Shown: positions 619-14,867 of the stretch, one piece after another | How positions within the stretch are numbered: position 1 is the stretch's first letter | How the letters are laid out: every line of letters starts with the position of its first letter | Position numbers and translations under genes: made by a program | Notes under the pieces: model-generated | The model's input: only the letters and a program-made list of their open reading frames with translations | Databases searched by the model: none | What the model was told of the DNA's origin: nothing | Origin: a candidate division FCPU426 bacterium | GTDB taxonomy: Bacteria; Oederibacteriota; JAAXVQ01; JAUVAV01 | Reading direction: 5' to 3' | Length of the DNA: 14,867 nt | Assembly (NCBI GenBank): GCA_030637655.1 | Contig: DAOWGI010000078.1 | Span: 1 to 14,867, forward strand

Positions 619-704
619 AATTCCGTTAGTGGTGTAACAAAAATCTGCCGGTATTGTTCATAAACGCTGTTTAACAGCACATCTTGCTTCACGAGGTGAC
701 GCCA

Positions 705-3095
705 ATGCTGCATGTCCATACCCCACAAGCCACTAAACATTTGCCACAGCATAATAAAAAGCCTCGCCCAAAACCAATGCATCAAAAAAGCAGTTCAAGG
801 GCATTAACCATGACTGTTAGATGTGTATGTGAAGGGCAATGTCCAAAATGCAGTGATTCAGGAATCAATACCCATACGCTTCAGAACAAAGCGGAGCTTT
901 CAGGGGGACCGCAGGTCCCCCTGACGCAAACGCCGATGCGTTTTGCTGGCCCCTCCTATCCGATTCAGGGGCTCCGCCCCCGAACCCCCGCTCTCTATTT
1001 TTATAGAGAGCCAAAGTATGAGCATGAAGCTGATATTCAGGCAGACCAATTGAACACTGGTCAGTCACAGGATAAGTCCGCGCATGACATTACAGCCGGC
1101 CGGTCAATGCAAAACCAGGGCTTGCCAAGCGCAATTGAAGCAGCAGTTAAAGGTCATGCTGGAAATGTCCTGGATGATCCAATAAAGGATCAATTTGAAG
1201 AGACGTTTGCTCGTGATCTATCTGCTGTTAGAATTCATGCTGATGTTAAATCAAATACACTTGCTCGGAATATAGGTGCGACGGCCTTCACCTGCGGTCA
1301 ACACATCTTTTTCAACCAAAACGCATTTCAACCCGGGACGCAGGCAGGGCAGCGGTTACTTGCGCATGAATTGACGCACGTCATGCAACAAACCCATCAT
1401 AGTCAAATACAAAAAGCTGAATTGGAATCACAGACAGCAATGTCCGTTGATGAAGATGTTCTCTTGGCCTTGCAAATTGCTGTTGATATGATGAATGGTG
1501 GTAACTGGTGGGAATCACAATTATTTCCAGCGCCGTGGCAGGAAGCATTGAATCAATTGATGGTCACTGTTGCCCGAGGCTCGACCCAATACGCAGGGAG
1601 GGAAGCGCAAGTTGTATTTCAAGAAGCTATTTTATGCTTGGAAGAAGCGATTCCTTATGTTGATGATCAATGGTTGGATACTCATTATTTTCCTAAAGTC
1701 ACAGCCTGGCAGAAAAAGTTTAGAGAAGAGGAACTGCGACTAGGTGTGGAAAATACCTATGAGCAGTTTGTGAACAATGAACTTCCGTCAATGGATGATT
1801 ATCCGGGACAGGCGGCCTACTTGGCTGCGAAAATGGATGAGCTTTATCGAACTGTTGATGTGGTTGATCAAGTCAAAAAAATAAGTAATTTTAAATTAGC
1901 ACGCAAAGGTGCATCTCTGGTTGATTGGTATGACACCTTTGGAAGGACCGAAAGTTATGCCACCCCCAAGTCCTTTTGGACTGGCAATGCGGTTATTGCC
2001 TACAGTACTGATCGTGGTGCAATGGTTAAGGACGGGATTACCCGCGCCAAAGGCATATTAATGGGTATTGATGCTGTTTTTAAAACACCGAAAATGTTAT
2101 CCGCTGAACCAATTTATGAAGACAATACCTTTGCTGATGTGGCCACTCGGGTGAAATGGGGGATTGAATTTATTAGTGGTGTATCAGCCCTGGTAGCAGA
2201 AACCGGGAATGTCGTATTAACTGCGATCGCGCCTTTTGTTAAAGATAAAGCCCTCCGGTTTGCCATACTTGGGCATGCTGATGATTGTATTGAAAAGTCA
2301 CGAAGCCTCTCCAAGTCTTTAGGATTAACGGGTGCTTTGGCAGCATTGGATTTGGCCAAAAACATGGCCATTATCGTAGACGCTAATTCAACATCCTTTG
2401 AGCGAATAGATGCAGGTGTTGGTGCAACTGTTGCTACCTTAAAATTGATGGAAGTAGGTGTCAAATATGGCGCACGCCCTGGAAGCCTCCTGGCAAGGCA
2501 TGGATTGCAATTTGGCGCCATGGAAGGTAGCATGGCCACAGTTGGAGGCGTAGCTTTGGCGCCCTTGGCGATATCCATCTCATTGAATTGGATGCTGTTC
2601 AAAGATGTGCTATTACCTTTGATGGGAAGCACCCGAATTAATGTTACCGCAGTGCTTATGCACGATGAAGTTGAAGATATGATTGAACAGGTGAATGCAA
2701 TTGGCCGGAGTTATGCTAAAGTCATTATTGCGCAGTCTATGAAAAATAATACGGAAGATGCTGAAAAGATTGAAATGTATCAATCCATTGAAAATGCAGC
2801 AGCAAAAGAAGTTGCCTATATGATTTATGAGTTCAATTTACATCATATTAACAGTTGGCGGTCCCGGACACTTAAACGTGAATTTCAGCAAATTATCTTA
2901 GAGCATAAAGACGCCCTGGAGGATCAGTTTGCAACTCCGGAAACCATAGCTCCGATTGTGGCTGCCTTGGTATATAAAGCAGAAATGTGCACAGTCTTCA
3001 TTCAATATTTGGTGGCTGATGAAGCAGGATTAAGTGGACCACAGGAAATTGATCGTTTGATTGCAGAAAAAAATCAAGGTGAAACCGTTCCCTAA
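705..3095 (+). CDS. DUF4157 (eCIS core domain) protein with hydrophobic helical C-terminal region; candidate toxin/effector, 796 aa
   Basis: GAGGTG RBS at 693-698 precedes ATG 705 (preferred over TTG 684). N-terminal CxCxGxCPKC and KYEHEADxxAD motifs are typical of DUF4157 leaders. The core is FEETFARDLSAVRIH...ARNIGATAFTCGQHIFF...GQRLLAHELTHVMQQ (HELTH at 1365-1379). Several Gly/Ala-rich hydrophobic segments lie at ~2150-2620. Confidence 0.9.
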   Translation: MLHVHTPQATKHLPQHNKKPRPKPMHQKSSSRALTMTVRCVCEGQCPKCSDSGINTHTLQNKAELSGGPQVPLTQTPMRFAGPSYPIQGLRPRTPALYFYREPKYEHEADIQADQLNTGQSQDKSAHDITAGRSMQNQGLPSAIEAAVKGHAGNVLDDPIKDQFEETFARDLSAVRIHADVKSNTLARNIGATAFTCGQHIFFNQNAFQPGTQAGQRLLAHELTHVMQQTHHSQIQKAELESQTAMSVDEDVLLALQIAVDMMNGGNWWESQLFPAPWQEALNQLMVTVARGSTQYAGREAQVVFQEAILCLEEAIPYVDDQWLDTHYFPKVTAWQKKFREEELRLGVENTYEQFVNNELPSMDDYPGQAAYLAAKMDELYRTVDVVDQVKKISNFKLARKGASLVDWYDTFGRTESYATPKSFWTGNAVIAYSTDRGAMVKDGITRAKGILMGIDAVFKTPKMLSAEPIYEDNTFADVATRVKWGIEFISGVSALVAETGNVVLTAIAPFVKDKALRFAILGHADDCIEKSRSLSKSLGLTGALAALDLAKNMAIIVDANSTSFERIDAGVGATVATLKLMEVGVKYGARPGSLLARHGLQFGAMEGSMATVGGVALAPLAISISLNWMLFKDVLLPLMGSTRINVTAVLMHDEVEDMIEQVNAIGRSYAKVIIAQSMKNNTEDAEKIEMYQSIENAAAKEVAYMIYEFNLHHINSWRSRTLKREFQQIILEHKDALEDQFATPETIAPIVAALVYKAEMCTVFIQYLVADEAGLSGPQEIDRLIAEKNQGETVP
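891..992. repeat. GC-rich multi-hairpin element inserted in frame in the DUF4157 gene (MITE/palindromic-element-like)
   Basis: Perfect 11-bp IR TCAGGGGGACC/GGTCCCCCTGA (900-924). Hairpin GCAAACGC/GCGTTTTGC (926-946). GCGGAGC (891-897) pairs with GCTCCGC (971-977). The element ends in GGGGCTCCGCCCCCGAACCCCCG and is 102 nt = 34 codons long. Confidence 0.65.
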
Positions 3096-3345
3096 AACTC
3101 ATAGAGTAACAGGTCAGTGAAGTGTTGTGTTAAAAAATCCCGGAAACTTATGGGCTGCGGATTTATTTTTTCCCTGGGACGCGACTTACCTGCAGATGGA
3201 AAAGGTGCCAAGCACAAAGTCCATCATTTATGCAGCTTATCTGCGGCGTACTAAGAAATTGATTTTCAAGAAAAGTTTAACAAAATCCGAAATAGTGTGT
3301 CAATGCCTAAAAATAGGCCGCAGGAGAATGGGTGAATTGTTTGTG

Positions 3346-3410
3346 AATGAGGGTCAGAGTTCGTTTTATTATTAAAACCTTAAGTTAACAAGCGAACTCT
3401 GACCCTCATT
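3346..3410. repeat. Perfect 18-bp inverted repeat with 29-nt AT-rich spacer (REP-doublet/MITE-like)
   Basis: AATGAGGGTCAGAGTTCG (3346-3363) is the exact reverse complement of CGAACTCTGACCCTCATT (3393-3410). Confidence 0.85.
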
Positions 3411-3569: not shown

Positions 3570-4949
3570 ATGATATATCGCAGGAATATAAATAAAAGCA
3601 AGAGCGGGGGTCGAAGTTATAGTGTGAGTCAAAGCCGCAGTACTGGGACGATCAAATCGATTATCCTGGATTTTCAGGAAATGAAGTTGGAAACTGGAGT
3701 GTCCCGCCGATTAAGCATCCGGACAGTTCCCGGCAAAGCCACTGTCTGCATTGGGGTTCGCCGGAGCGGGAAATCAACATATCTATATCAGATCATTGAA
3801 CGGTTTTTGAAAAGAGGAGTCCTTCGGGAGAATATTCTCTATTTGAATTTTTTTGATGACCGTCTTCACAACCTGCAACAGACAGGCCTTGACGTGATCG
3901 TCGAAGCCTATTATTCAATTTACCCGGAAAAGAAAAACATTGAGACGGTCTACTGCTTTTTTGACGAAATTCAAGCAGTTGTCGGATGGGAGCCTTTTGT
4001 CGACCGCTTAATGCGCACGGAAAAATGCGAGGTTTACCTGACGGGCTCGTCAGCCAGAATGCTTTCAAAGGAGATTGCCACGCAGATGCGCGGGCGGGCG
4101 TTGTCGTGGGAGCTGATGCCGTTCTCGTTCAGGGAATTCCTGGACCGGAAGGAATTAAAAAGCGCCGGTGCACTGTCCACTAAGCAGCGGTTTCTCATAC
4201 TGAAGGCTTTCGAGGAATACTGGGAGACCGGCGGTTTTCCGGAGGTGGCCGGCCTTGACCGGAACCTGCGAATAAAGATTCACCAGGAATATTTTAATGC
4301 CATTCTGTTTCGGGATTTGATCGAGCGCCACGACATTTCCCATCCCAAGGCTCTGACGGATCTGGCGCACCGGCTGGTAGACAACGCGGCTTCGCTTTAT
4401 TCCGTCAACAGTCTTACGGGATATTTAAAATCGCTGGGGCACAAGGTTCCCAAGGCAACGGTTTCAGAGTACCTGGAATGGTTTGAAGACGCCTATTTTC
4501 TTTTTACGGTGAGGATATTTGATGCATCGCTTGCACGCAGCAACACCAACGCGAAGAAAGTCTACTGTATCGATCACGCGCTGGTTGTTTCAGTGTCGTC
4601 CGGCATTCTGCTTAATTCCGGACATCTTCTGGAAAATCTCGTTTTTCTAGCGCTTAGGCGCCTTCAGCCGGAGATTTACTATTATAAGACAAAAGCCGGC
4701 CGGGAGGTCGATTTCATCGTCCCGATGAGCGGCCGCAAGCGGATGTTAGTCCAGGTTAGTGAGTCTTTAGCCGAACCGCAGACGAGGAATCGGGAAGTGA
4801 CGGCGCTGCGCGAGGCCATGGAAGAACTGGGGCTAAAATCCGGGACCATAGTAACCCGAAATGAAGAGACGATAATAAAATATTCCGGTAGTAGTACAAT
4901 CGAAGTGGTTCCGATATGGCGTTTTCTACTTGATCTGCCGGAAGCGTAA
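3570..4949 (+). CDS. AAA+ superfamily ATPase, AAA_14 + DUF4143 (COG1373-type)
   Basis: Walker A GVRRSGKS (3753-3776), LYLNFFDDRL, Walker B FFDEIQ, YLTGSSA, GGFPE, KKVYCID, GHLLENLV and C-terminal REVDFIV..LVQVS (DUF4143 PD-(D/E)XK-like fold). The true start could be slightly downstream (e.g. GTG near 3624). Confidence 0.92.
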   Translation: MIYRRNINKSKSGGRSYSVSQSRSTGTIKSIILDFQEMKLETGVSRRLSIRTVPGKATVCIGVRRSGKSTYLYQIIERFLKRGVLRENILYLNFFDDRLHNLQQTGLDVIVEAYYSIYPEKKNIETVYCFFDEIQAVVGWEPFVDRLMRTEKCEVYLTGSSARMLSKEIATQMRGRALSWELMPFSFREFLDRKELKSAGALSTKQRFLILKAFEEYWETGGFPEVAGLDRNLRIKIHQEYFNAILFRDLIERHDISHPKALTDLAHRLVDNAASLYSVNSLTGYLKSLGHKVPKATVSEYLEWFEDAYFLFTVRIFDASLARSNTNAKKVYCIDHALVVSVSSGILLNSGHLLENLVFLALRRLQPEIYYYKTKAGREVDFIVPMSGRKRMLVQVSESLAEPQTRNREVTALREAMEELGLKSGTIVTRNEETIIKYSGSSTIEVVPIWRFLLDLPEA

Positions 4950-5100: not shown

Positions 5101-5229
5101 TCCTAGTCATGCTGGAAAAACCGTAGGGGCGAACCTTGTGTTCGCCCGAAAAAAACGCAGGGGCGACCAGCCGGTCGCCTGTGTTGTGGAAAAATGGGAA
5201 TCTGATTAATGGTGCCAGGCACCTAATCC
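5101..5229. repeat. Composite REP-like repeat, copy 2
   Basis: TCCTAGTCATGCTGGAAAAACCGTAGGGGCGAAC...GGTGCCAGGCACCTAATCC shares 126 bp with 6896-7021 and 118 bp with 1-118, with only single-base differences. Confidence 0.95.
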
Positions 5230-6895: not shown

Positions 6896-7021
6896 TCCTA
6901 GTCATGCTGGAAAAACCGTAGGGGCGAACCTTGTGTTCGCCCGAAAAAAACGCAGGGGCGACCAGCCGGTCACCTGTGTTGTGGGAAAATGGGAATCTGA
7001 TTAATGGTGCCAGGCACCTAA
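6896..7021. repeat. Composite REP-like repeat, copy 3
   Basis: 126-bp match to 5101-5226 with two substitutions. Confidence 0.95.
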
Positions 7022-7140: not shown

Positions 7141-7290
7141 ATGCCGAATCGAACCAGCATAACCGGCAGTAAGCTTTTTATCGTGGAGAAATTTCAGGAA
7201 TACAATACATTTCTTCGATCTGCCATCTCAATTGAGTACGGTGTCACCGGAATTTGTGACCGTTGCGGATCACCACGGGAAAAATCGTAG
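7141..7290 (+). pseudogene. 49-aa ORF, possible 5' remnant of a larger (PLD/SNF2 helicase-type) gene
   Basis: A strong RBS GAGAGGGAG precedes ATG 7141. The N-terminus MPNRTSITGSKLFIVE resembles, from memory, the MPxRTSxTGSELFIVDN start of restriction-associated PLD-helicase proteins. The ORF then runs into repeat-like DNA and stops at the TAG of a GTAG REP. Confidence 0.4.
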
Positions 7291-7330
7291 GGGCGACCGG
7301 CCGGTCGCCCGTGTTGCGGGGAAATGAGAA
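7278..7330. repeat. Single-unit GTAG REP related to the composite repeat
   Basis: GTAG (7287-7290) is followed by the perfect 20-bp palindrome GGGCGACCGGCCGGTCGCCC (7291-7310). The flanks GGAAAAAtC and GTGTTGcGGggAAATGaGAA match the composite's flanks. Confidence 0.88.
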
Positions 7331-7507: not shown

Positions 7508-9649
7508 ATGGAAAGAAAATTGATTGTTTGGGAGCAAGATTTCGAGCGATCCTTCCAGGCATCAACACCCTCTGACTGGAGAAAGGCAGGCGGGATACTG
7601 TCTCTTATTCCTAATCGTGCCGATTGGGACTGCTTTATTGAAACAGTAAAAAAAGACTGGGACAATTGGAAGGTAAATCTACTTCAATATAAAAATTGTT
7701 TGATTATTTTATACGATGGTTTGGCTTTTTATGAATATGGAGAAAATAGATTTTGGCCACAGTTCGCTAAAACACTTGGCAAAGAAGTATTACCAAGCAA
7801 TCTAATAAATGAAATCAATAAAAAATTTGCAAAAGCCGCAAAAAACCATGGCTTAAAAATTCTGCAACGTAACAATAGGATGGATTTTAACGGTTCTGCA
7901 GTGTATCACATAGGCATTCCTCTCTCATTATGGGACGGATTTTTGGATATTTGCGAATGGGCGTTATGGCGAAATAATTGGAAATTACTACTTGATGATG
8001 AGTGGGAAAAAACAATTACTAAACTTGCCGGAAGCCGTGTAAGACTAAGAATTTTTTTAATTGAAAATCGTGAAGCAGCAAGCATGCTTATTCAAGAAGT
8101 AATAGACGCGCGTAAAATATTGACCGAAGATCAGAAATTAAGTATTAGTGATATTTCTCAAGCAACCACTCTTCGAATTGAATATTTTGAAGAAGTTCCA
8201 GAAACTGCAGAATTTCTCCGCCTGGATAATCTCGAGTCTCTTTATAGAGGTCGTGCGATCCTCACTTGGAACGATCAACGAGGTATTATCAGCCTCTACT
8301 TGCCTGCGATTGACAAAGATAAACTACCAGCCACTTGGTGCGTCGACACATTAAAGCAGGAAGCTTCTACCACTCCTGATGAATTTATTCTGAATTCATT
8401 ATCTTTTGAATCTTTGTTGAAATTAAAACTAGAATCAAGTCTGTTTACCGAGGTGATAAAACTTAGAGGCATCAAGCCTTGGGGTATGTTTGAGGCGAGG
8501 TGTGGTGGCAATTTTGTTAATTCGGACCGAGAGCAATTGCCATATAGAAGTTATGTGATTATTTCTCAAGAAAAAATAGAAAATATTACTCGAGAAGGTT
8601 TTGAAGAAAAGGAAAATCCCATCAATGAACATTTTGAACTTGCGGATGGTAAGACATGCTTTGTTACCCGTCTCTGGCCTAATGACAAGCATGGGGTGTT
8701 ACGAATTAAACAAAAACAATTGGACAAAGAAACGACGATTCGCTTTAGAGCGAATACGAAAATTGAGGCCAAAATTTATCCTGGGATCGGAAATCGCGCC
8801 GCAAACTTTACCCGGTATCCTAGCGAAAATAAAATAGTGACTGATCAGTTGCCAACAGTGTGCGTTGCAATACCATATGGATATGAGTATAGCGAATCAT
8901 ATCTTAACGATAAATTCAGTATATTTGTTGACAAACTGCCAGCAATAGGCAAGTGGAAAAAATATCCTGTTCATTCGGATGAGAAGAATTTTTATAGGTG
9001 GATTTGGGATAAAAAACCCTTTAGAGAGCAAACCAAAACTGGTGTAAAACTCAGAGGTTTTAAGCAACTCAATGAGTGCTACAAAGCACCCGACCTGAAA
9101 GGCGACAGAACATTTTTTATCCGATCTCCTGAATTTGTTAAAAGCTATCGAGTTTATTTAGAACACACAAAATATAGCATGACAGATTGTTGGGAAAATC
9201 TGCCAGGTGCATATCTCATCTGGTTTTTGCTTTGCCAAGAACCCACAGGGAGTAAGTTGGAGGATTTGTTGCTTGCAAAGGATATAATTGCTCCTGAAGC
9301 CAGGCAGTTAAGCACATACTTGCTGCATAAGTACGCAAATTTCGGTTTTCTCATACAACGCGGCCGGTTATGGGAAATTGCGAAATCCCATGCCGCTATT
9401 ACTTGCCATACAGATAGATTTTGTCAGTTAGATTATTGTGGCGACCCCTCTATCCTTTGGGGTCTGTATCGCAAAATGTATCATGAGTCACCCAATCATG
9501 AATTGCCTGTCATTGAGGTTATAAATAAGTGGGGCGCACAAGAGGTTCCTTTTCTTCAAATGAAATGGAACATTGCTTTGCAAGATAAGTTAATAAAATA
9601 TTTACAAAGTAGAGATGTTATGACGGGGGGAGCTCTATGGACTCACTAA
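7508..9649 (+). CDS. Large hypothetical protein (~713 aa), partner of the DUF1998 helicase; DruH-like position and N-terminal motifs
   Basis: Long AT-rich ORF; ATG 7508 is preferred over TTG 7445. It has an aromatic-rich N-terminal motif LAFYEYGENRFWPQF and AVYHIGIPLSLWDGF, a beta-rich middle and a possible winged-helix near the C-terminus. It overlaps the helicase start by 13 nt. Confidence 0.8.
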   Translation: MERKLIVWEQDFERSFQASTPSDWRKAGGILSLIPNRADWDCFIETVKKDWDNWKVNLLQYKNCLIILYDGLAFYEYGENRFWPQFAKTLGKEVLPSNLINEINKKFAKAAKNHGLKILQRNNRMDFNGSAVYHIGIPLSLWDGFLDICEWALWRNNWKLLLDDEWEKTITKLAGSRVRLRIFLIENREAASMLIQEVIDARKILTEDQKLSISDISQATTLRIEYFEEVPETAEFLRLDNLESLYRGRAILTWNDQRGIISLYLPAIDKDKLPATWCVDTLKQEASTTPDEFILNSLSFESLLKLKLESSLFTEVIKLRGIKPWGMFEARCGGNFVNSDREQLPYRSYVIISQEKIENITREGFEEKENPINEHFELADGKTCFVTRLWPNDKHGVLRIKQKQLDKETTIRFRANTKIEAKIYPGIGNRAANFTRYPSENKIVTDQLPTVCVAIPYGYEYSESYLNDKFSIFVDKLPAIGKWKKYPVHSDEKNFYRWIWDKKPFREQTKTGVKLRGFKQLNECYKAPDLKGDRTFFIRSPEFVKSYRVYLEHTKYSMTDCWENLPGAYLIWFLLCQEPTGSKLEDLLLAKDIIAPEARQLSTYLLHKYANFGFLIQRGRLWEIAKSHAAITCHTDRFCQLDYCGDPSILWGLYRKMYHESPNHELPVIEVINKWGAQEVPFLQMKWNIALQDKLIKYLQSRDVMTGGALWTH

Positions 9650-12600
9650 CAACTCGATTTGAGAAGGAGGTTTTTTCGCCATATCTTGAGATACTCAAGG
9701 CGCAGTATCGCATACACCCAATGTACGCCCATGCTAAAAAGATATGGGAAGAAAAACTTACCTTAAAAGAATTGGTCAATGGTCCCTATTTGGAAAAAAC
9801 ACAGGTTTATGAACCTGGTGACCCTTTAGAGTCTCTTGATCTCCATGAAAAAACCGTAAAAACCATTCGCAAGCGACTTGGTGATATGGAAAATCTTTAT
9901 CGTCATCAAACCGATGCTTTAAATCTTTTACTTTCCGGTAAAAACGCTGTTATTGCAACCGGTACAAGCAGCGGAAAAACCCTCTGTTATCAGATACCAA
10001 TTCTTGATGACTTAATACGCAATTCTACATCGGGCTTAAGGGCTGTTATTATCTACCCGCTTAATGCCTTGGTGAATGATCAACTCACCGAATGGGAGGA
10101 AATGCTAAAGGACCATTCACACATTTCTTTTGCGAGATTTACAGGCCAGACCCCGGATAATCAGGTTGAATATGAGAGCGGGCTCCGCGCTGTGATCCGA
10201 GATAAACTTATTAATGAGAAACTTTCGCAGCAAGAGTTGCACAAGCAGATTGAACTTAGACTAGCAGACACGGTACGCAATGAAATACCTAACCGTCTCA
10301 ATCACCGCGAAGATATTCGCGCAAAAGGTCCACAAATACTCATCACAAATTTTTCAATGCTTGAATATCTTCTGGAGCGGCCGATTGACTCGTCTGTTTT
10401 TGATAATGCAAGTCTTAAGTATTTAGTGCTTGATGAAGCACATGCATACAGAGGAGTACAAGCGACGGAAATATCCTTCTTGATACGACGATTAAAAGAT
10501 CGCTTGGGTATTGAGCGGTTAACTTGCATTGCAACCTCAGCCACTTTGGGCAAGAAGGATGATGTGGAGAGTCAAAAGAAAGTCCGCAAATATTCCGCAG
10601 ATATGTTCGGTGAGGAATTTAATGAGCCGAACCCGATTTACGGCACACTGGCCACACTCAAGATTGAACAGCCGGCATATAAGCCTTCAGCTTTGCAGTA
10701 TATCCAAGCGGCCGAAGCCATGAGAGCATCTAGTCAGGCGGATATCAGAAAATATCTCGGTATAACTGTCTCAGATAATGACGTGGCCGTCATTCTTGCT
10801 CATGATGAGAATTTGTTTAGTTTGCGAAAAGAGATATTAAAAAAGCCGATATTGGTGAGCGAGGCAGCGAAATTACTTTGGCCGACCGATTCAAATGCGG
10901 AAAACGGGCTATTAGCTTTGTTGGAAATTGTGGCAGGAGCGAGGAGAAACGGAGTACATGAAGACTTACTTCCAACGCGTCTTCATTATTTTGTGAGAGC
11001 CCAGGATGGGTTGCACATTTGCCTTCACAAAGAATGTCCCGGGCGTAAAGGTGGACAGCCTGCTTTTTTTGTATCTAGAAAGGCCGATTCGGAAGTGCTA
11101 GAGGGGTATTGTCCAGAGTGTCAGCAAAAAGGTCGATCCTCTAAATTGGTTGAAGTCGTAACATGTCGTAAATGTGGTTACCTATATGGTGCATTGCAAG
11201 ATTTGGGTCCGCGCCGAGCTCAGACTCCAGAAAATGATTCGGACGCCATGAGAGCTGCTTTTGATTCCTTTAGCACAGAATTGGGCTGGGCAGCCGATTC
11301 TTTTTGGTCGTACTTTTGTGTCGAAAACGAACTACCATATCCGAAAGAACCGAAAGCCGATGAAGAAGATATAGACGATGTTTTTCAGTTGGAATGGTGT
11401 GTTATATGTGGCAAAAAACATGATTCTGGTGCCGGGGACAAATGCACCTGTTTAACACCACATTTGCGAAAGATCCAAATAATTCATCGTCAATGCTTCC
11501 ATTCCGGTAAACCAAAGGACCTAGCAAATCTTTATAGCTCGCAGAAAAGGTCTTTGAGGGCTTGCCCAAATTGTGGTGCTCAGAATAGTTCTGGGCTTGA
11601 GCCAGTGCGCCGCTTTCAGGAGTCTGATGACGAGACCGGCTTGGCCATGGCAATTCCGCTTGCTCATTTTCAAGTCACCCCTGTTTTAGACAAAAAGAAA
11701 CCCCCACGTAAGCTACTTTGTTTTACTGATCACCGGCAGAGGGCCGCAGCGTTTCCATCACTTCTTGAGGAAGAGACGTTTGTTCATGATATGGGGCGTA
11801 AGATCGTAGAAATAACCAATGCGGAAGGTAAATCCCTTGATTTAGTGACATTGGGGGAACGCCTTGCTGATATATCGGATAGCCAGTCAAACAACTATGA
11901 CCCTGATTTCTTTTTGCCTGTTTCACGTTTCCCAGATGGAGAACTGGATACAAGAGGGGGGATTAATTTATGGATAGCGGAGACATTCAGCTATTTTGGT
12001 ATCCCAGATGCTGCGCGTGAATCTGCAGAAGATTTAGGGCTTGTAACAGCCGAATATCTGCTTGAAGAGAAGGAAGCGCTTGTTTTTCATAGGTTGCTAA
12101 ATAAATCGAATCTTTCTCTTCAAGATTCTACAGCAGCTTTGCAGATATTACTCGGAATTATACGACAAAGGAAAGCCTTTACTCTTCCAACAGGGCGTGT
12201 TCATTACTCAGACCCAGCTTTCGGACGTGTTACGGTTGATATAGCGTACATTTTACGCAGAGAGGGCGTGGGAAAGCTGCAGGGTAAATACGTAAAAGGA
12301 TGGTTGCCGCGGTTAAATAAAGACGGCACTTACCGCAATAATTTCGTTACAGACTATCTACGCCGTTTACTACAGTTGCCTCCGCAAGAGATTTTAAATA
12401 TAGCAGAAAAAATATGGCAATTTCTTACAACGGAGTTTTTACTAATCCCACATAGGGAAACATGGAAGCTCGGATATGAAAGAATATGCGTTAAGAAAGC
12501 ACCCTCACGCTATGTCTGTAAACGTTGTGGTTATGTGACCGCTTATTCTGCGCAGCAATGTTGTCCTCGGAAGGAGTGTGACGGCAAACTAGAAATACGT

Positions 12601-14532
12601 CCATTTGATTCTGCGAAAGAAAATATTATAGCACGGTGGGTCGCCGACCAAATAATGCCTCGGTTTACTAATTTGAAATCAGAGGAACACAGCGCACAAA
12701 TAAGCAAGCCAGTTGCGAAAAGGATTGAAGACGAGTTCCGGGCAGAAGGTATAAATCTTCTAAGTAGTACTACGACGTTTGAGATGGGTATCAACATAGG
12801 AGATCTTCAAAAGATTCTTCTCCGTAACGCACCTCCGACGAGTGCGAGCTACGTGCAGCGCGTTGGACGAGCTGGGCGCGGTATCGACAAAAATGCCGTT
12901 TGCGTTACGTTATGCCGTCGTACTAAGTATGATGCAGATGCGTGGCAGGAGCCGTCGCGTTTAATGTCCGGCGAAGTGAGAACTCCGACGGTTTTTACTC
13001 AGAATCCAATAATTGCACAACGACACTTTAATGCAGTACTTTTTGCAAAATATTTACGTGAAAATGTTCTTGAAAGACAACTTCTTGGGGAATTGAAACA
13101 AGAAATACGTTTAGAGCCTTTTTTATCCTCAGCTATTCGGGATCAGTCAAAATTATTACCGAAACCCTGGCTAATTTTTCCGCCTGATTTGTATCTGGAT
13201 TTTACCAGTTGGCTTGACAGGACTAGCGAGCAAGATGTTTTCAGCACTTCCGCGTGCCTAGCTATTCTATCAGCCGTTGGTACGTTCTCTATCGGTAAAA
13301 TTGAGGCTATAAAGAAATACACATATATTCTTACCGCTATAACCGATGAACTAGAAACTCTTCTCAGAGAACGACTGCAGATAGTCAGCTATGGTCGTCA
13401 TGTGGTGGATATTGATCGATCTATCAAATCACTGCTAAGAAACGGCATCATAAATGTACTAGCAAGGCGTGGATTCCTGCCTCGCTACGCTTTTCCTCTC
13501 GACGTAGTATCCCTTGAAACTGGCCCAAGTCGGTGGTCTCGCGAATCTGATGTTGAGTTAAGTCGTGACAGGGGGATTGCAATTGCCGAATTTGCTCCAG
13601 GAGCCCAAGTCATAGCACATAAAAAAGTCTTCACTAGTGAAGGTCTCTACATCGTAAGTAAGAGAGACGTGCCGGAGAAGAGGTTCTATGTAAGATGTAG
13701 AAATTGCGATCAAATAAGAACTGCATCGACGCAAGAAAAACTGAAGGGAAGATGTTTAGTTTGTAATAAAGCAGTAAATCCAGTGCAGGATATAAAGATT
13801 TTTGTCGAACCAGAGGCGTTCAGTATACGCATAGACAAACACAGTGAGGGATCAGCAAGATATCGTCGTACCACACTGATCCGTCAGCGGCAATCGCTCA
13901 CTCACTTCATTGATTCTGTTAAAGACGATCAGTTTGAAGACTATGGTATTTTCAAGCTGGTGCTCAAGGTGCCGGGGACACTATTTCGATATAATCTAGG
14001 TCCGAATAATGGCGGATTCATTCTGTGTCCCCATTGTGGTTATAGTGCGCCAAAGAAAGTATTTACTATAGCTAAGAAACATCAAAGGCTTAGAGTGTTT
14101 CGTGGAAATGCAGATTGTATTCAACAGCCATGGTCAAAAGAAATTGCGTATGGGCATCAGTTCCAGAGTTATTGCCTTATCGTCCGTCCTGCCGTCCCCT
14201 CAACATCAATTGTGTCCCTCGCGTTTGCATTAAAAAAAGGATTGTGCACAGTTCTAGATATCGAGCCATCTGATATTGGCGTATCATGGAGATGGTTAGC
14301 GAATAAAAACGACAAGGTTGGTGAAATTATCCTGTATGATTATGCACCGGGGGGCGCGGGATTTGTAAAGGAGGGGATTGATAATTGGCAACAGGTTGTA
14401 AATATAACTCGCGAAATATGTAAAGTCTGTAAATGTGAAAAGGCATGCTATGATTGTTTGAAGGATTATGGTAATCAATCTTATCATGAAAAATTAAATC
14501 GATACACAGTGACAGAATTTTTACGAATATAA
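9637..14532 (+). CDS. SF2 DEAD/DEAH-box helicase with multiple Zn-ribbons and C-terminal DUF1998 (DruE-like), 1631 aa
   Basis: RBS GGGGGAG at 9626-9632. Motifs: Q LYRHQ, I ATGTSSGKT (9955-9981), Ia IYPLNALVNDQ, Ib ILITNFSMLEYLL, II DEAH (10432-10443), III SAT, IV LLCFTDHRQRAA, EEHSAQ, V STTTFEMGINIGDL, VI YVQRVGRAGR. Also GFLPRYAFP, LSRDRGIAIAEFAPG, many CxxC pairs and a C-terminal LYDYAPGGAG...CKCEKACYDCL (DUF1998). Confidence 0.95.
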   Translation: MDSLTTRFEKEVFSPYLEILKAQYRIHPMYAHAKKIWEEKLTLKELVNGPYLEKTQVYEPGDPLESLDLHEKTVKTIRKRLGDMENLYRHQTDALNLLLSGKNAVIATGTSSGKTLCYQIPILDDLIRNSTSGLRAVIIYPLNALVNDQLTEWEEMLKDHSHISFARFTGQTPDNQVEYESGLRAVIRDKLINEKLSQQELHKQIELRLADTVRNEIPNRLNHREDIRAKGPQILITNFSMLEYLLERPIDSSVFDNASLKYLVLDEAHAYRGVQATEISFLIRRLKDRLGIERLTCIATSATLGKKDDVESQKKVRKYSADMFGEEFNEPNPIYGTLATLKIEQPAYKPSALQYIQAAEAMRASSQADIRKYLGITVSDNDVAVILAHDENLFSLRKEILKKPILVSEAAKLLWPTDSNAENGLLALLEIVAGARRNGVHEDLLPTRLHYFVRAQDGLHICLHKECPGRKGGQPAFFVSRKADSEVLEGYCPECQQKGRSSKLVEVVTCRKCGYLYGALQDLGPRRAQTPENDSDAMRAAFDSFSTELGWAADSFWSYFCVENELPYPKEPKADEEDIDDVFQLEWCVICGKKHDSGAGDKCTCLTPHLRKIQIIHRQCFHSGKPKDLANLYSSQKRSLRACPNCGAQNSSGLEPVRRFQESDDETGLAMAIPLAHFQVTPVLDKKKPPRKLLCFTDHRQRAAAFPSLLEEETFVHDMGRKIVEITNAEGKSLDLVTLGERLADISDSQSNNYDPDFFLPVSRFPDGELDTRGGINLWIAETFSYFGIPDAARESAEDLGLVTAEYLLEEKEALVFHRLLNKSNLSLQDSTAALQILLGIIRQRKAFTLPTGRVHYSDPAFGRVTVDIAYILRREGVGKLQGKYVKGWLPRLNKDGTYRNNFVTDYLRRLLQLPPQEILNIAEKIWQFLTTEFLLIPHRETWKLGYERICVKKAPSRYVCKRCGYVTAYSAQQCCPRKECDGKLEIRPFDSAKENIIARWVADQIMPRFTNLKSEEHSAQISKPVAKRIEDEFRAEGINLLSSTTTFEMGINIGDLQKILLRNAPPTSASYVQRVGRAGRGIDKNAVCVTLCRRTKYDADAWQEPSRLMSGEVRTPTVFTQNPIIAQRHFNAVLFAKYLRENVLERQLLGELKQEIRLEPFLSSAIRDQSKLLPKPWLIFPPDLYLDFTSWLDRTSEQDVFSTSACLAILSAVGTFSIGKIEAIKKYTYILTAITDELETLLRERLQIVSYGRHVVDIDRSIKSLLRNGIINVLARRGFLPRYAFPLDVVSLETGPSRWSRESDVELSRDRGIAIAEFAPGAQVIAHKKVFTSEGLYIVSKRDVPEKRFYVRCRNCDQIRTASTQEKLKGRCLVCNKAVNPVQDIKIFVEPEAFSIRIDKHSEGSARYRRTTLIRQRQSLTHFIDSVKDDQFEDYGIFKLVLKVPGTLFRYNLGPNNGGFILCPHCGYSAPKKVFTIAKKHQRLRVFRGNADCIQQPWSKEIAYGHQFQSYCLIVRPAVPSTSIVSLAFALKKGLCTVLDIEPSDIGVSWRWLANKNDKVGEIILYDYAPGGAGFVKEGIDNWQQVVNITREICKVCKCEKACYDCLKDYGNQSYHEKLNRYTVTEFLRI

Positions 14533-14546
14533 TCGGTGTCGGAGTT

Positions 14547-14867
14547 TTGCGCCAGGCCAAGTCTGGACAAAGGGAATGAGGTGAGAAGCAAACTCTGAAA
14601 CTTTGTAACGAAACCTAGTGGGTAACCAATCCCACCCGGCAAAGCCTAGCCAGCAGCCGGAAGCGAGTCTTGCGTGGCAGAGAGGTAACTCTCTGTGGCG
14701 AAGCGTAGACAGCGAGTACACAGGCCGTGTGATAGAGTCCCGAAATCACCAATGCGAAAGCCGACGAGTTGACTCCAACGGAAGGCAGCATCCAACCATC
14801 GCAAGGGCAAGATGGTAGGGTTTCGCCGGGATCGGAGAGCAGGGCATGTGTACAGGAGGTTTCCCAG
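14547..14867 (+). mobile_element. Group II intron, 5' part of domain I (IIB-type RNA; truncated by window end, intron-encoded RT not in window)
   Basis: Begins TTGCG (variant of GTGCG). Contains characteristic DI strings GCCGGAAGCGAGTCTTGCG, GAAGCGTAGACAGCGA, GAGTCCCGAAA, GCCGACG...GGAAGGC and CGCCGGGATCGGAGAGCAGGGCATG...CCCAG. The loop GACTCC (14771-14776) is complementary to the 6 nt GGAGTT directly before the 5' end (EBS1/IBS1). Confidence 0.88.

Follow-up and report, generated by a model that had tools for sequence, protein, structure and literature searches.

The gene pair and its DruE-family helicase

The window analysed here is a stretch of 14,867 nt, contig DAOWGI010000078.1 (assembly GCA_030637655.1) of a candidate division FCPU426 bacterium. 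Its forward strand carries two overlapping genes, one encoding a 713-aa protein, referred to below as the partner, and one encoding a 1631-aa helicase of the DruE family. A first-pass annotation had proposed this pair as a candidate anti-phage system resembling Druantia type III. The features are collected in Table 1; related loci are designated by the letter L and a number.

Table 1. Features of the two-gene cassette and of its surroundings (positions in the window)
Feature	Position	Strand	Basis or remark
Partner gene, 713 aa	7508..9649	+	DruH-like by architecture, no family assigned
Partner N-terminal helical domain, aa 1-246	7508..8245	+	May be remotely homologous to the N-terminal domain of DruH/YjiT
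Partner beta-rich middle, aa 248-552	8249..9163	+	About three immunoglobulin (Ig)/fibronectin type III-like sandwiches
Partner C-terminal alpha/beta domain, aa 556-713	9173..9646	+	DSSP of predicted models; unlike the all-alpha DruH C-terminal domain
Shine-Dalgarno-like GGGGGGAG	9625..9632	+	Inside the partner 3' end, 4 nt upstream of the helicase ATG; direct sequence reading
Gene overlap, 13 nt	9637..9649	+	Related loci also have overlapping or nearly abutting genes
DruE helicase, 1631 aa, nuclease-less, 'III-B-like'	9637..14532	+	PADLOC DruE3 7.4e-167, DruE1 2e-163
Walker A/motif I GTSSGKT (residue 109; K114)	9961..9981	+	Kept in 33-35 of 35 clade members
Motif II DEAH (residue 266; D266, E267)	10432..10443	+	D, E and H kept in 34 of 35 clade members
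Cys-rich zinc-module insert, aa 462-646	11020..11574	+	Cys pairs kept in 31-35 of 35 clade members
Helicase_C (RecA2) core including motif VI	12670..12879	+	Pfam PF00271, 2.2e-11, residues 1012-1081
MZB/DUF1998 zinc-binding domain	14221..14460	+	Pfam PF09369, 1.9e-12, residues 1529-1608
REP-like (repetitive extragenic palindromic) palindrome GGGGCGACCGGCCGGTCGCCC, context	7290..7310 (upstream of the cassette)		More copies at 5160-5180 and 6957-6974
Group II intron domains D1-D4, context, outside the system	14626..14841	+	Rfam RF02005, 154 bits, E 6.5e-45

Both open reading frames (ORFs) were confirmed, as were the 13-nt overlap and the internal ribosome-binding site noted at first pass. The first frame is open from 7445; the partner start was placed at the ATG at 7508, and homologues begin at an equivalent site with the consensus MxxxLxxWE. 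The helicase ATG lies 13 nt before the end of the partner gene, whose TAA occupies positions 9647–9649.

In PADLOC the helicase is matched by the DruE3 and DruE1 models and strongly by DruE2 and DruE4 too; models of other YprA-type defence helicases are far weaker (DpdJ 2.5e-20, DrmA 1.8e-11). All NCBIfam helicase equivalogs score far below their cut-offs. Among PDB sequences the closest solved relative is 9tu7_Y (9e-81), with 6znp_A at 5.9e-26. Pfam places a DEAD domain at residues 89–177, ahead of the Helicase_C and MZB/DUF1998 domains, and the protein ends 23 residues after MZB. Further helicase motifs are TSAT at residue 300 and, as motif VI, QRVGRAGR at residue 1074. When 35 clade members are aligned, the two short rows (L017 and L019) being interrupted ORFs, the motif positions are kept in 21–35 of the 35 sequences and most of them in 33–35. 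The ∼700 residues between the two helicase matches carry conserved Cys pairs (462/467/492/495, 510/513, 588/591, 603/605/620, 643/646 and 961/964/976/981); some 30 cysteines in CxxC-type pairs, together with motifs I, II, III and VI, are kept in nearly all members. Zinc-binding modules are described in defence YprA helicases by Bell et al. (2025; PMC12458937). The superfamily 2 (SF2) motifs, the Cys-rich insert and the DUF1998 domain that had been recognized in the second gene are all borne out by the Pfam domains and the alignment.

The DruE3 profile is matched by the helicase only up to position 1672 of 2055. A BLASTP comparison with the DruE protein of E. coli ATCC 8739 (2104 aa) gave 24–29% identity over RecA1 and then over RecA2–MZB, ending at residue 1712. 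Since neither match extends further, the window's helicase lacks both of the PLD nuclease domains that type III-A DruE has. It is an SF2 helicase of the DruE family whose ATPase motifs are intact; it carries several zinc modules, ends with an MZB domain and has no nuclease domain.

Three of the four orthologue accessions that we looked up in Table S1 of Bell et al. (MBI3563015.1, MBL8203987.1 and BFU89524.1) are listed there as III-B-like, while MGQ0792611.1 is not listed; the table gives 1,449 III-B-like helicases in all. Two of the looked-up orthologues share 64% (locus L009) and 58% (locus L045) of their residues with the window's helicase. The helicase therefore belongs to an already catalogued III-B-like clade, a placement that rests on identities to the window's helicase and on the published table.

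Two side observations concern the helicase. The L017 and L019 helicase ORFs stop after 1092 and 280 residues, and tblastn matches continue in a second piece; these interruptions are frameshifts, pseudogenes or assembly errors. Another contig of the window's genome (C60, ∼1300–3400) carries a separate 983-aa frame with a weak YprA-like match to the helicase (E 1e-9), possibly a housekeeping MrfA/YprA homologue.

Linkage, distribution and defence context

The collection seeded with the partner contained 51 loci, one genome per species; three of them held fragments of 31–34 residues, leaving 48. A helicase 49–67% identical to that of the window lies directly downstream on the same strand in 45 of the 48, or in 45 of the 46 with downstream DNA. 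Two of the three exceptions are at a contig edge and one is a 306-aa remnant. The reciprocal collection, seeded with the helicase and drawn from metagenome contigs, had 36 loci with the helicase N-terminus and at least 600 nt upstream. The partner was found upstream in all 33 loci where the helicase is at least 44% identical (32 by tblastn and L137 by hhalign, E 4e-39), and in none of the three where it is 27–29% identical.

Identities of the two proteins to those of the window co-vary (Spearman 0.77, 51 loci), a figure that is descriptive only, with some loci being the same contig in both collections and relatives not being independent. The partner is less conserved than the helicase in all 51 loci (median identity 42% versus 61%). 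It is an obligate, faster-evolving companion of this helicase. The assignment made at first pass, by which the second gene encodes a DruE helicase and the first takes the place of DruH, agrees with both the PADLOC matches and the gene order in the related loci. No conserved third gene was found around the pair; the largest cluster of flanking genes occurs in 3 of 45 sets.

Distribution of the cassette is sporadic. Among 99 species genomes of its phylum, the window's own is the sole one with the partner; none of ten in its family has it, and the related loci come from more than ten phyla. This phyletic pattern, far more than base composition, argues for horizontal transfer, as the first-pass annotation had suggested.

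Defence genes are frequent near the related loci. Of the nearest flanking ORFs, 33 of 146 (at 22 of 42 loci) match PADLOC models at E ≤ 1e-10, including models for DarT/DarG, DRT reverse transcriptase, type II restriction-modification, prokaryotic Argonaute (pAgo) with SIR2 partners, AbiE, ZorA and PDC-S01. The same ORF caller and threshold, applied to ten other regions of the window's genome, gave matches for 8 of 142 ORFs, mostly to generic domains (odds ratio 4.9, Fisher p 3.5e-5).

Some loci appear to be decayed. Around positions 8001–8100 of L049, L050 and L051 (Acidobacteriota) we observed fragments of 29–34 residues, 65–69% identical to partner residues 128–161. No ORF of at least 150 aa covers those of L049 and L050, and no helicase lies close by; they are probably gene remnants. 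In L044 (5704–6624) a cut-down partner copy of 306 aa (residues 26–288) has no helicase downstream.

The partner protein and DruH

The partner is not an orphan: 285 clusters match it at E ≤ 1e-3, forming a family of ∼710 aa. Among 120 listed homologues, lengths are 655–805 aa (most ∼700–750) and identities 45–100%. It has no match at E ≤ 10 in Pfam, in a version that did not contain PF27201 and PF27205, and none in NCBIfam or among PDB chain sequences. E. coli DruH (1119 aa, "STY4851/ECs_5259 family") matches ten PADLOC DruH models, and its homologues carry precomputed PF27201 (YjiT_N) and PF27205 (YjiT_2nd). A search of the ESM Atlas with the partner returned its own cluster and two unnamed clusters (925 and 1009 aa) at 0.90; a YjiT-bearing cluster appeared only at rank 22 (0.80), a lead at most. 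No description of the 713-aa family was found in the full-text literature searched, a search whose scope did not take in the figures of Bell et al.; the main text of that paper mentions DruH zero times. The idea of an undescribed subtype goes too far for the helicase, which is already catalogued; the part covered by no model or text that we found is the 713-aa partner family. Full-length matches to canonical DruH and DruE models, named at first pass as the result that would make this a known system, were obtained only in part for DruE and not at all for DruH.

An AlphaFold2 model of the partner, built from an alignment of 41 sequences, has a pLDDT (predicted local distance difference test) score of 89.6 and a predicted template modelling (pTM) score of 0.83. 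The model comprises the three domains of Table 1: helical, beta-rich (residues 251–551 in the model) and alpha/beta. The E. coli DruH model (pLDDT 82.7) has a helical domain at 1–247, a beta region at 260–831 and an all-alpha domain at 842–1118, and its two best Foldseek matches are the same two SbsC entries as for the partner model. The partner model also has an Ig-like array, shorter than that of DruH, and its C-terminal domain is of a different type. An ESM Atlas search with that C-terminal domain alone gave no usable match, fold libraries having barely probed this part of the protein.

The two helical domains were compared by local hhalign of the N-domain sub-alignments, with no secondary-structure scoring. 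The alignment is collinear over 229 columns at E 0.1, which is not significant. Across it, 177 of 229 positions (77%) have the same DSSP state in the two models, which are independent of each other, versus 98–131 (44–57%) in twelve shifted registers used as a control. Invariant partner residues W83, G136, P138 and P231 and the near-invariant Y69 align with DruH W88, G137, P139, P231 and Y72; in DruH, G137, P139 and P231 are invariant, W88 is nearly so and Y72 lies outside the conserved columns. The N-terminal motifs called loosely DruH-like at first pass do line up, Y69/W83/G136-I-P138 in the partner with Y72/W88/G137-L-P139 in DruH. A similar collinear and non-significant N-domain alignment was obtained for the 931-aa partner of another DruE (L145), with motifs Y-W-P-x-F and Y-H-x-x-I-P. 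On this evidence we lean towards the partner N-domain being a remote homologue of the DruH N-domain, and we infer that the partner as a whole is a shortened, very remote DruH relative.

Other DruE helicases have upstream partners of still other kinds. In L052 (2765–10650, a Clostridium butyricum plasmid) and in the metagenome loci L143, L144 and L145 the DruE gene lies behind genes for proteins of 1069, 1069, 907 and 931 aa; none of these matches a PADLOC DruH model, and hhalign links them to neither DruH nor the window's partner. The clostridial 1069-aa partner family has at least 374 clusters. Full-length hhalign of the window's partner against this family or against the other single partners was never significant. 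The PLD region is retained in the L145 DruE, which matches the profile up to position 2014 of 2055. With at least three further DruE-linked partner families missed by DruH models, the partner side of type III is far more diverse than the models capture.

Interpretation and rival explanations

The pair probably makes up an anti-phage cassette of Druantia type III that is self-contained, moves horizontally and belongs to the compact 'III-B-like' branch. As in the III-B pair MSMEG_1253/1254 of Mycobacterium smegmatis (PMC13316683), two co-oriented genes overlap (13 nt here, 17 bp there), and the DruE protein, ∼1630–1670 aa long, ends at MZB with no PLD nuclease; III-B systems are described as having a DruE that is compact and nuclease-less. 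The genus is also among the III-B-like rows of Table S1 of Bell et al. The two differ in the partner: that of the window has 713 aa versus 1132 aa, is matched by no DruH model and combines about three Ig-like domains with a C-terminal domain of another type. Type III-A systems (E. coli ATCC 8739 and P. aeruginosa; solved DruE 9tu7 and DruH 9tud) share with the window's pair the gene order, the helicase core (24–29% identity) and a partner that, in the models, opens with a helical domain followed by Ig-like domains. They differ in a 2104-aa E. coli DruE with two PLD domains, both absent here, and in a 1119-aa E. coli DruH with six Ig-like domains and an all-alpha C-terminal domain; the window's partner is shorter and does without that domain.

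If type III is a guide, the partner would sense infection, engage phage DNA intermediates, or both, through its Ig-like stalk and DruH-like N-domain, which would meet protein or DNA specific to infection, and would then license DruE. In DruH the Ig-like scaffold is proposed as a protein sensor and the N-domain as a surface for regulation or DNA processing. DruE, reported to be a 3'-5' helicase that loads on single-stranded DNA (ssDNA), 3' overhangs or forks, would load on single-stranded or forked phage DNA, translocate 3'-to-5' and unwind phage replication intermediates. Because the window's DruE has no nuclease, the phage genome would either be kept from circularising and replicating or be cut by the partner or by nucleases of the host. 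The M. smegmatis pair (1132 and 1667 aa, with a DruE lacking a nuclease) is reported in PMC13316683 to block phage DNA circularisation and replication, to need the DruH–DruE interaction and to be triggered by a minor tail protein. Its reported interface residues lie in the insert corresponding to residues 705–990 of the window's DruE. The N-domain of DruH is reported to be essential for function, and for DruH as a whole the reports give three accounts. In one it binds ssDNA, which ATP inhibits, and has no nuclease activity; in another it is a 3'-5' exonuclease, the putative active site lying in the N-domain, and recruits DruE on forked DNA; in the third it acts as a sensor, its scaffold being Ig/J-like, with a regulatory surface at the N-terminus and nicking that depends on dimers.

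A number of results weigh against the Druantia-type reading. At sequence level the partner is not a DruH. PADLOC, with at least ten DruH models, gives no match for it at E ≤ 10; no precomputed Pfam family is assigned to any of the 120 listed homologues; among 1.84 billion cluster representatives, a profile search matched 180 (∼35 full-length proteins plus fragments), none of them DruH-sized; and when 41 sequences of its family were compared by hhalign with 27 DruH sequences (down to 18% identity), the probability was 0.3% at full length and 0.6% for the N-domain alone. Statistics alone would not carry the N-domain homology, and the likeness of the N-domains is one of DSSP states of predicted models and of aligned residues. 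The DruH residues reported as essential, E75, R78/R79 and Y114/W115, are not conserved in the partner, where they face L72, Y75/E76 and N113/H114 (in a weak alignment). The DruH C-terminal domain, to which published accounts assign an ssDNA/ATP pocket and the contact to the DruE stalk, is absent from the partner, and no nuclease domain was found in either protein of the window. The literature searched contained no phage-tested member of this clade, and the analogy is itself unsettled because 2026 preprints disagree on the role of DruH. Viral contigs in IMG/VR gave no partner relatives among 57 candidate stretches, and the scan with DruE found only relatives at 23–33% identity there. A plasmid search gave 202 records with DruE relatives, all below 60% identity, the 30 listed being at 24–28%. 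Finally, the control for defence context was drawn from a single genome.

It is unlikely, in our estimate, that the partner is unrelated to DruH and that DruE here recruited a helical plus Ig-like protein, making a separate DruE-based system whose trigger and effector logic are its own. Helix for helix, and at equal residue numbers, the N-domains correspond well above the shifted registers, and the invariant W, G-[IL]-P and P coincide with those of DruH; the models of the two proteins share their top fold matches; and the L145 family gives the same collinear N-domain alignment and motifs. An independent origin would nevertheless agree with the negative outcome of every sequence test against DruH and with the differing C-terminal domains, and the existence of DruE helicases behind upstream families missed by DruH models suggests that partners do turn over.

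Far less probable is a role in housekeeping or stress-related DNA repair of the MrfA/MrfB (YprA) kind. The pair shares with MrfAB an SF2 helicase core and the MZB zinc domain (hence the 6znp_A match), and a mycobacterial repair-type homologue is reported in PMC13316683 to be able to replace DruE. However, the window's helicase is more than twice the size of YprA (1631 versus ∼750 aa), has zinc-module inserts and scores far higher with DruE models; its orthologues are placed in the defence branch by Bell et al.; the partner is of another type, with no exonuclease domain; the cassette is sporadic within the phylum and sits in a variable, defence-enriched context; and the genome has the separate 983-aa YprA-like frame mentioned above. 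It is likewise very improbable that the cassette serves the replication or transfer of a mobile element, or competition between elements (e.g. anti-plasmid activity), and not phage defence. Sporadic distribution and the flanking group II intron and repeats would suit such a role. Yet the flanks of the pair share no conserved gene for integrase, replication or transfer, as the low recurrence of flanking genes indicates, the cassette is absent from IMG/VR contigs in our scan, and its plasmid relatives are only distant.

Among other systems with YprA-family helicase modules carrying DUF1998, DISARM (DrmA/DrmB) and Dpd (DpdJ) differ in the weakness of the matches given above and in that no DrmC, methylase or dpd genes occur among the neighbours. 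As for Druantia type IV (DruE, DruF, DruL; PMC8565338), the partner and the five neighbouring ORFs have no Dru match.

The Druantia-type reading has consequences for annotation. Detection tools that require DruH would, as we expect from the PADLOC models, see only an orphan DruE here, and Druantia would be undercounted in environmental phyla such as Nitrospirota, Acidobacteriota, Planctomycetota and Verrucomicrobia. The partner family would also represent a natural deletion experiment on DruH: the N-domain and a short Ig-like array are kept and the C-domain is dropped, next to a nuclease-less DruE. It bears on which parts of DruH are indispensable and on whether Druantia-type immunity works without a built-in nuclease. 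More tentatively, and with doubts that outweigh our confidence, the 710-aa family could be a distinct compact Druantia subtype, with a DruH-type N-domain, a three-domain Ig-like stalk, a new alpha/beta C-domain and a nuclease-less DruE. If so, either immunity here proceeds without a dedicated nuclease, the helicase stripping or blocking phage replication intermediates, or the N-domain shared with DruH serves every type III system as its smallest unit for catalysis or licensing; such a subtype would help to settle the dispute over the role of DruH.

The flanks of the cassette agree in part with their first description. The REP-like palindrome recurs genome-wide: allowing up to two mismatches, each strand of the 3.28-Mb genome has 22 sites, versus none for a reversed control, and the copy at 6957–6974 shows up in a terminator scan. 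The group II intron, identified by its Rfam match, starts 94 nt past the helicase stop and continues towards the window end. The supposed AT-richness is weak: GC content of the cassette is 41.8% versus 44.8% over 187 kb of the same genome (ten regions, 41.8–47.2%), and only the partner gene stands out (38.5%). Base composition as evidence for transfer was rejected as too weak.

Upstream, the ORF at 684–3095 (+, 803 aa) has an eCIS_core domain (PF13699, 3.2e-28) at residues 163–239 and no PADLOC or NCBIfam match. The five neighbouring ORFs gave a single PADLOC match, PDC-S01 (7.4e-109), for the ORF at 3570–4949 (+), an AAA_14/DUF4143 ATPase according to Pfam; the earlier statement that no methylase or other Dru gene is adjacent stands. 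In L023 (5046–7628, Elusimicrobia) two PDC-S01 genes lie directly upstream of the cassette.

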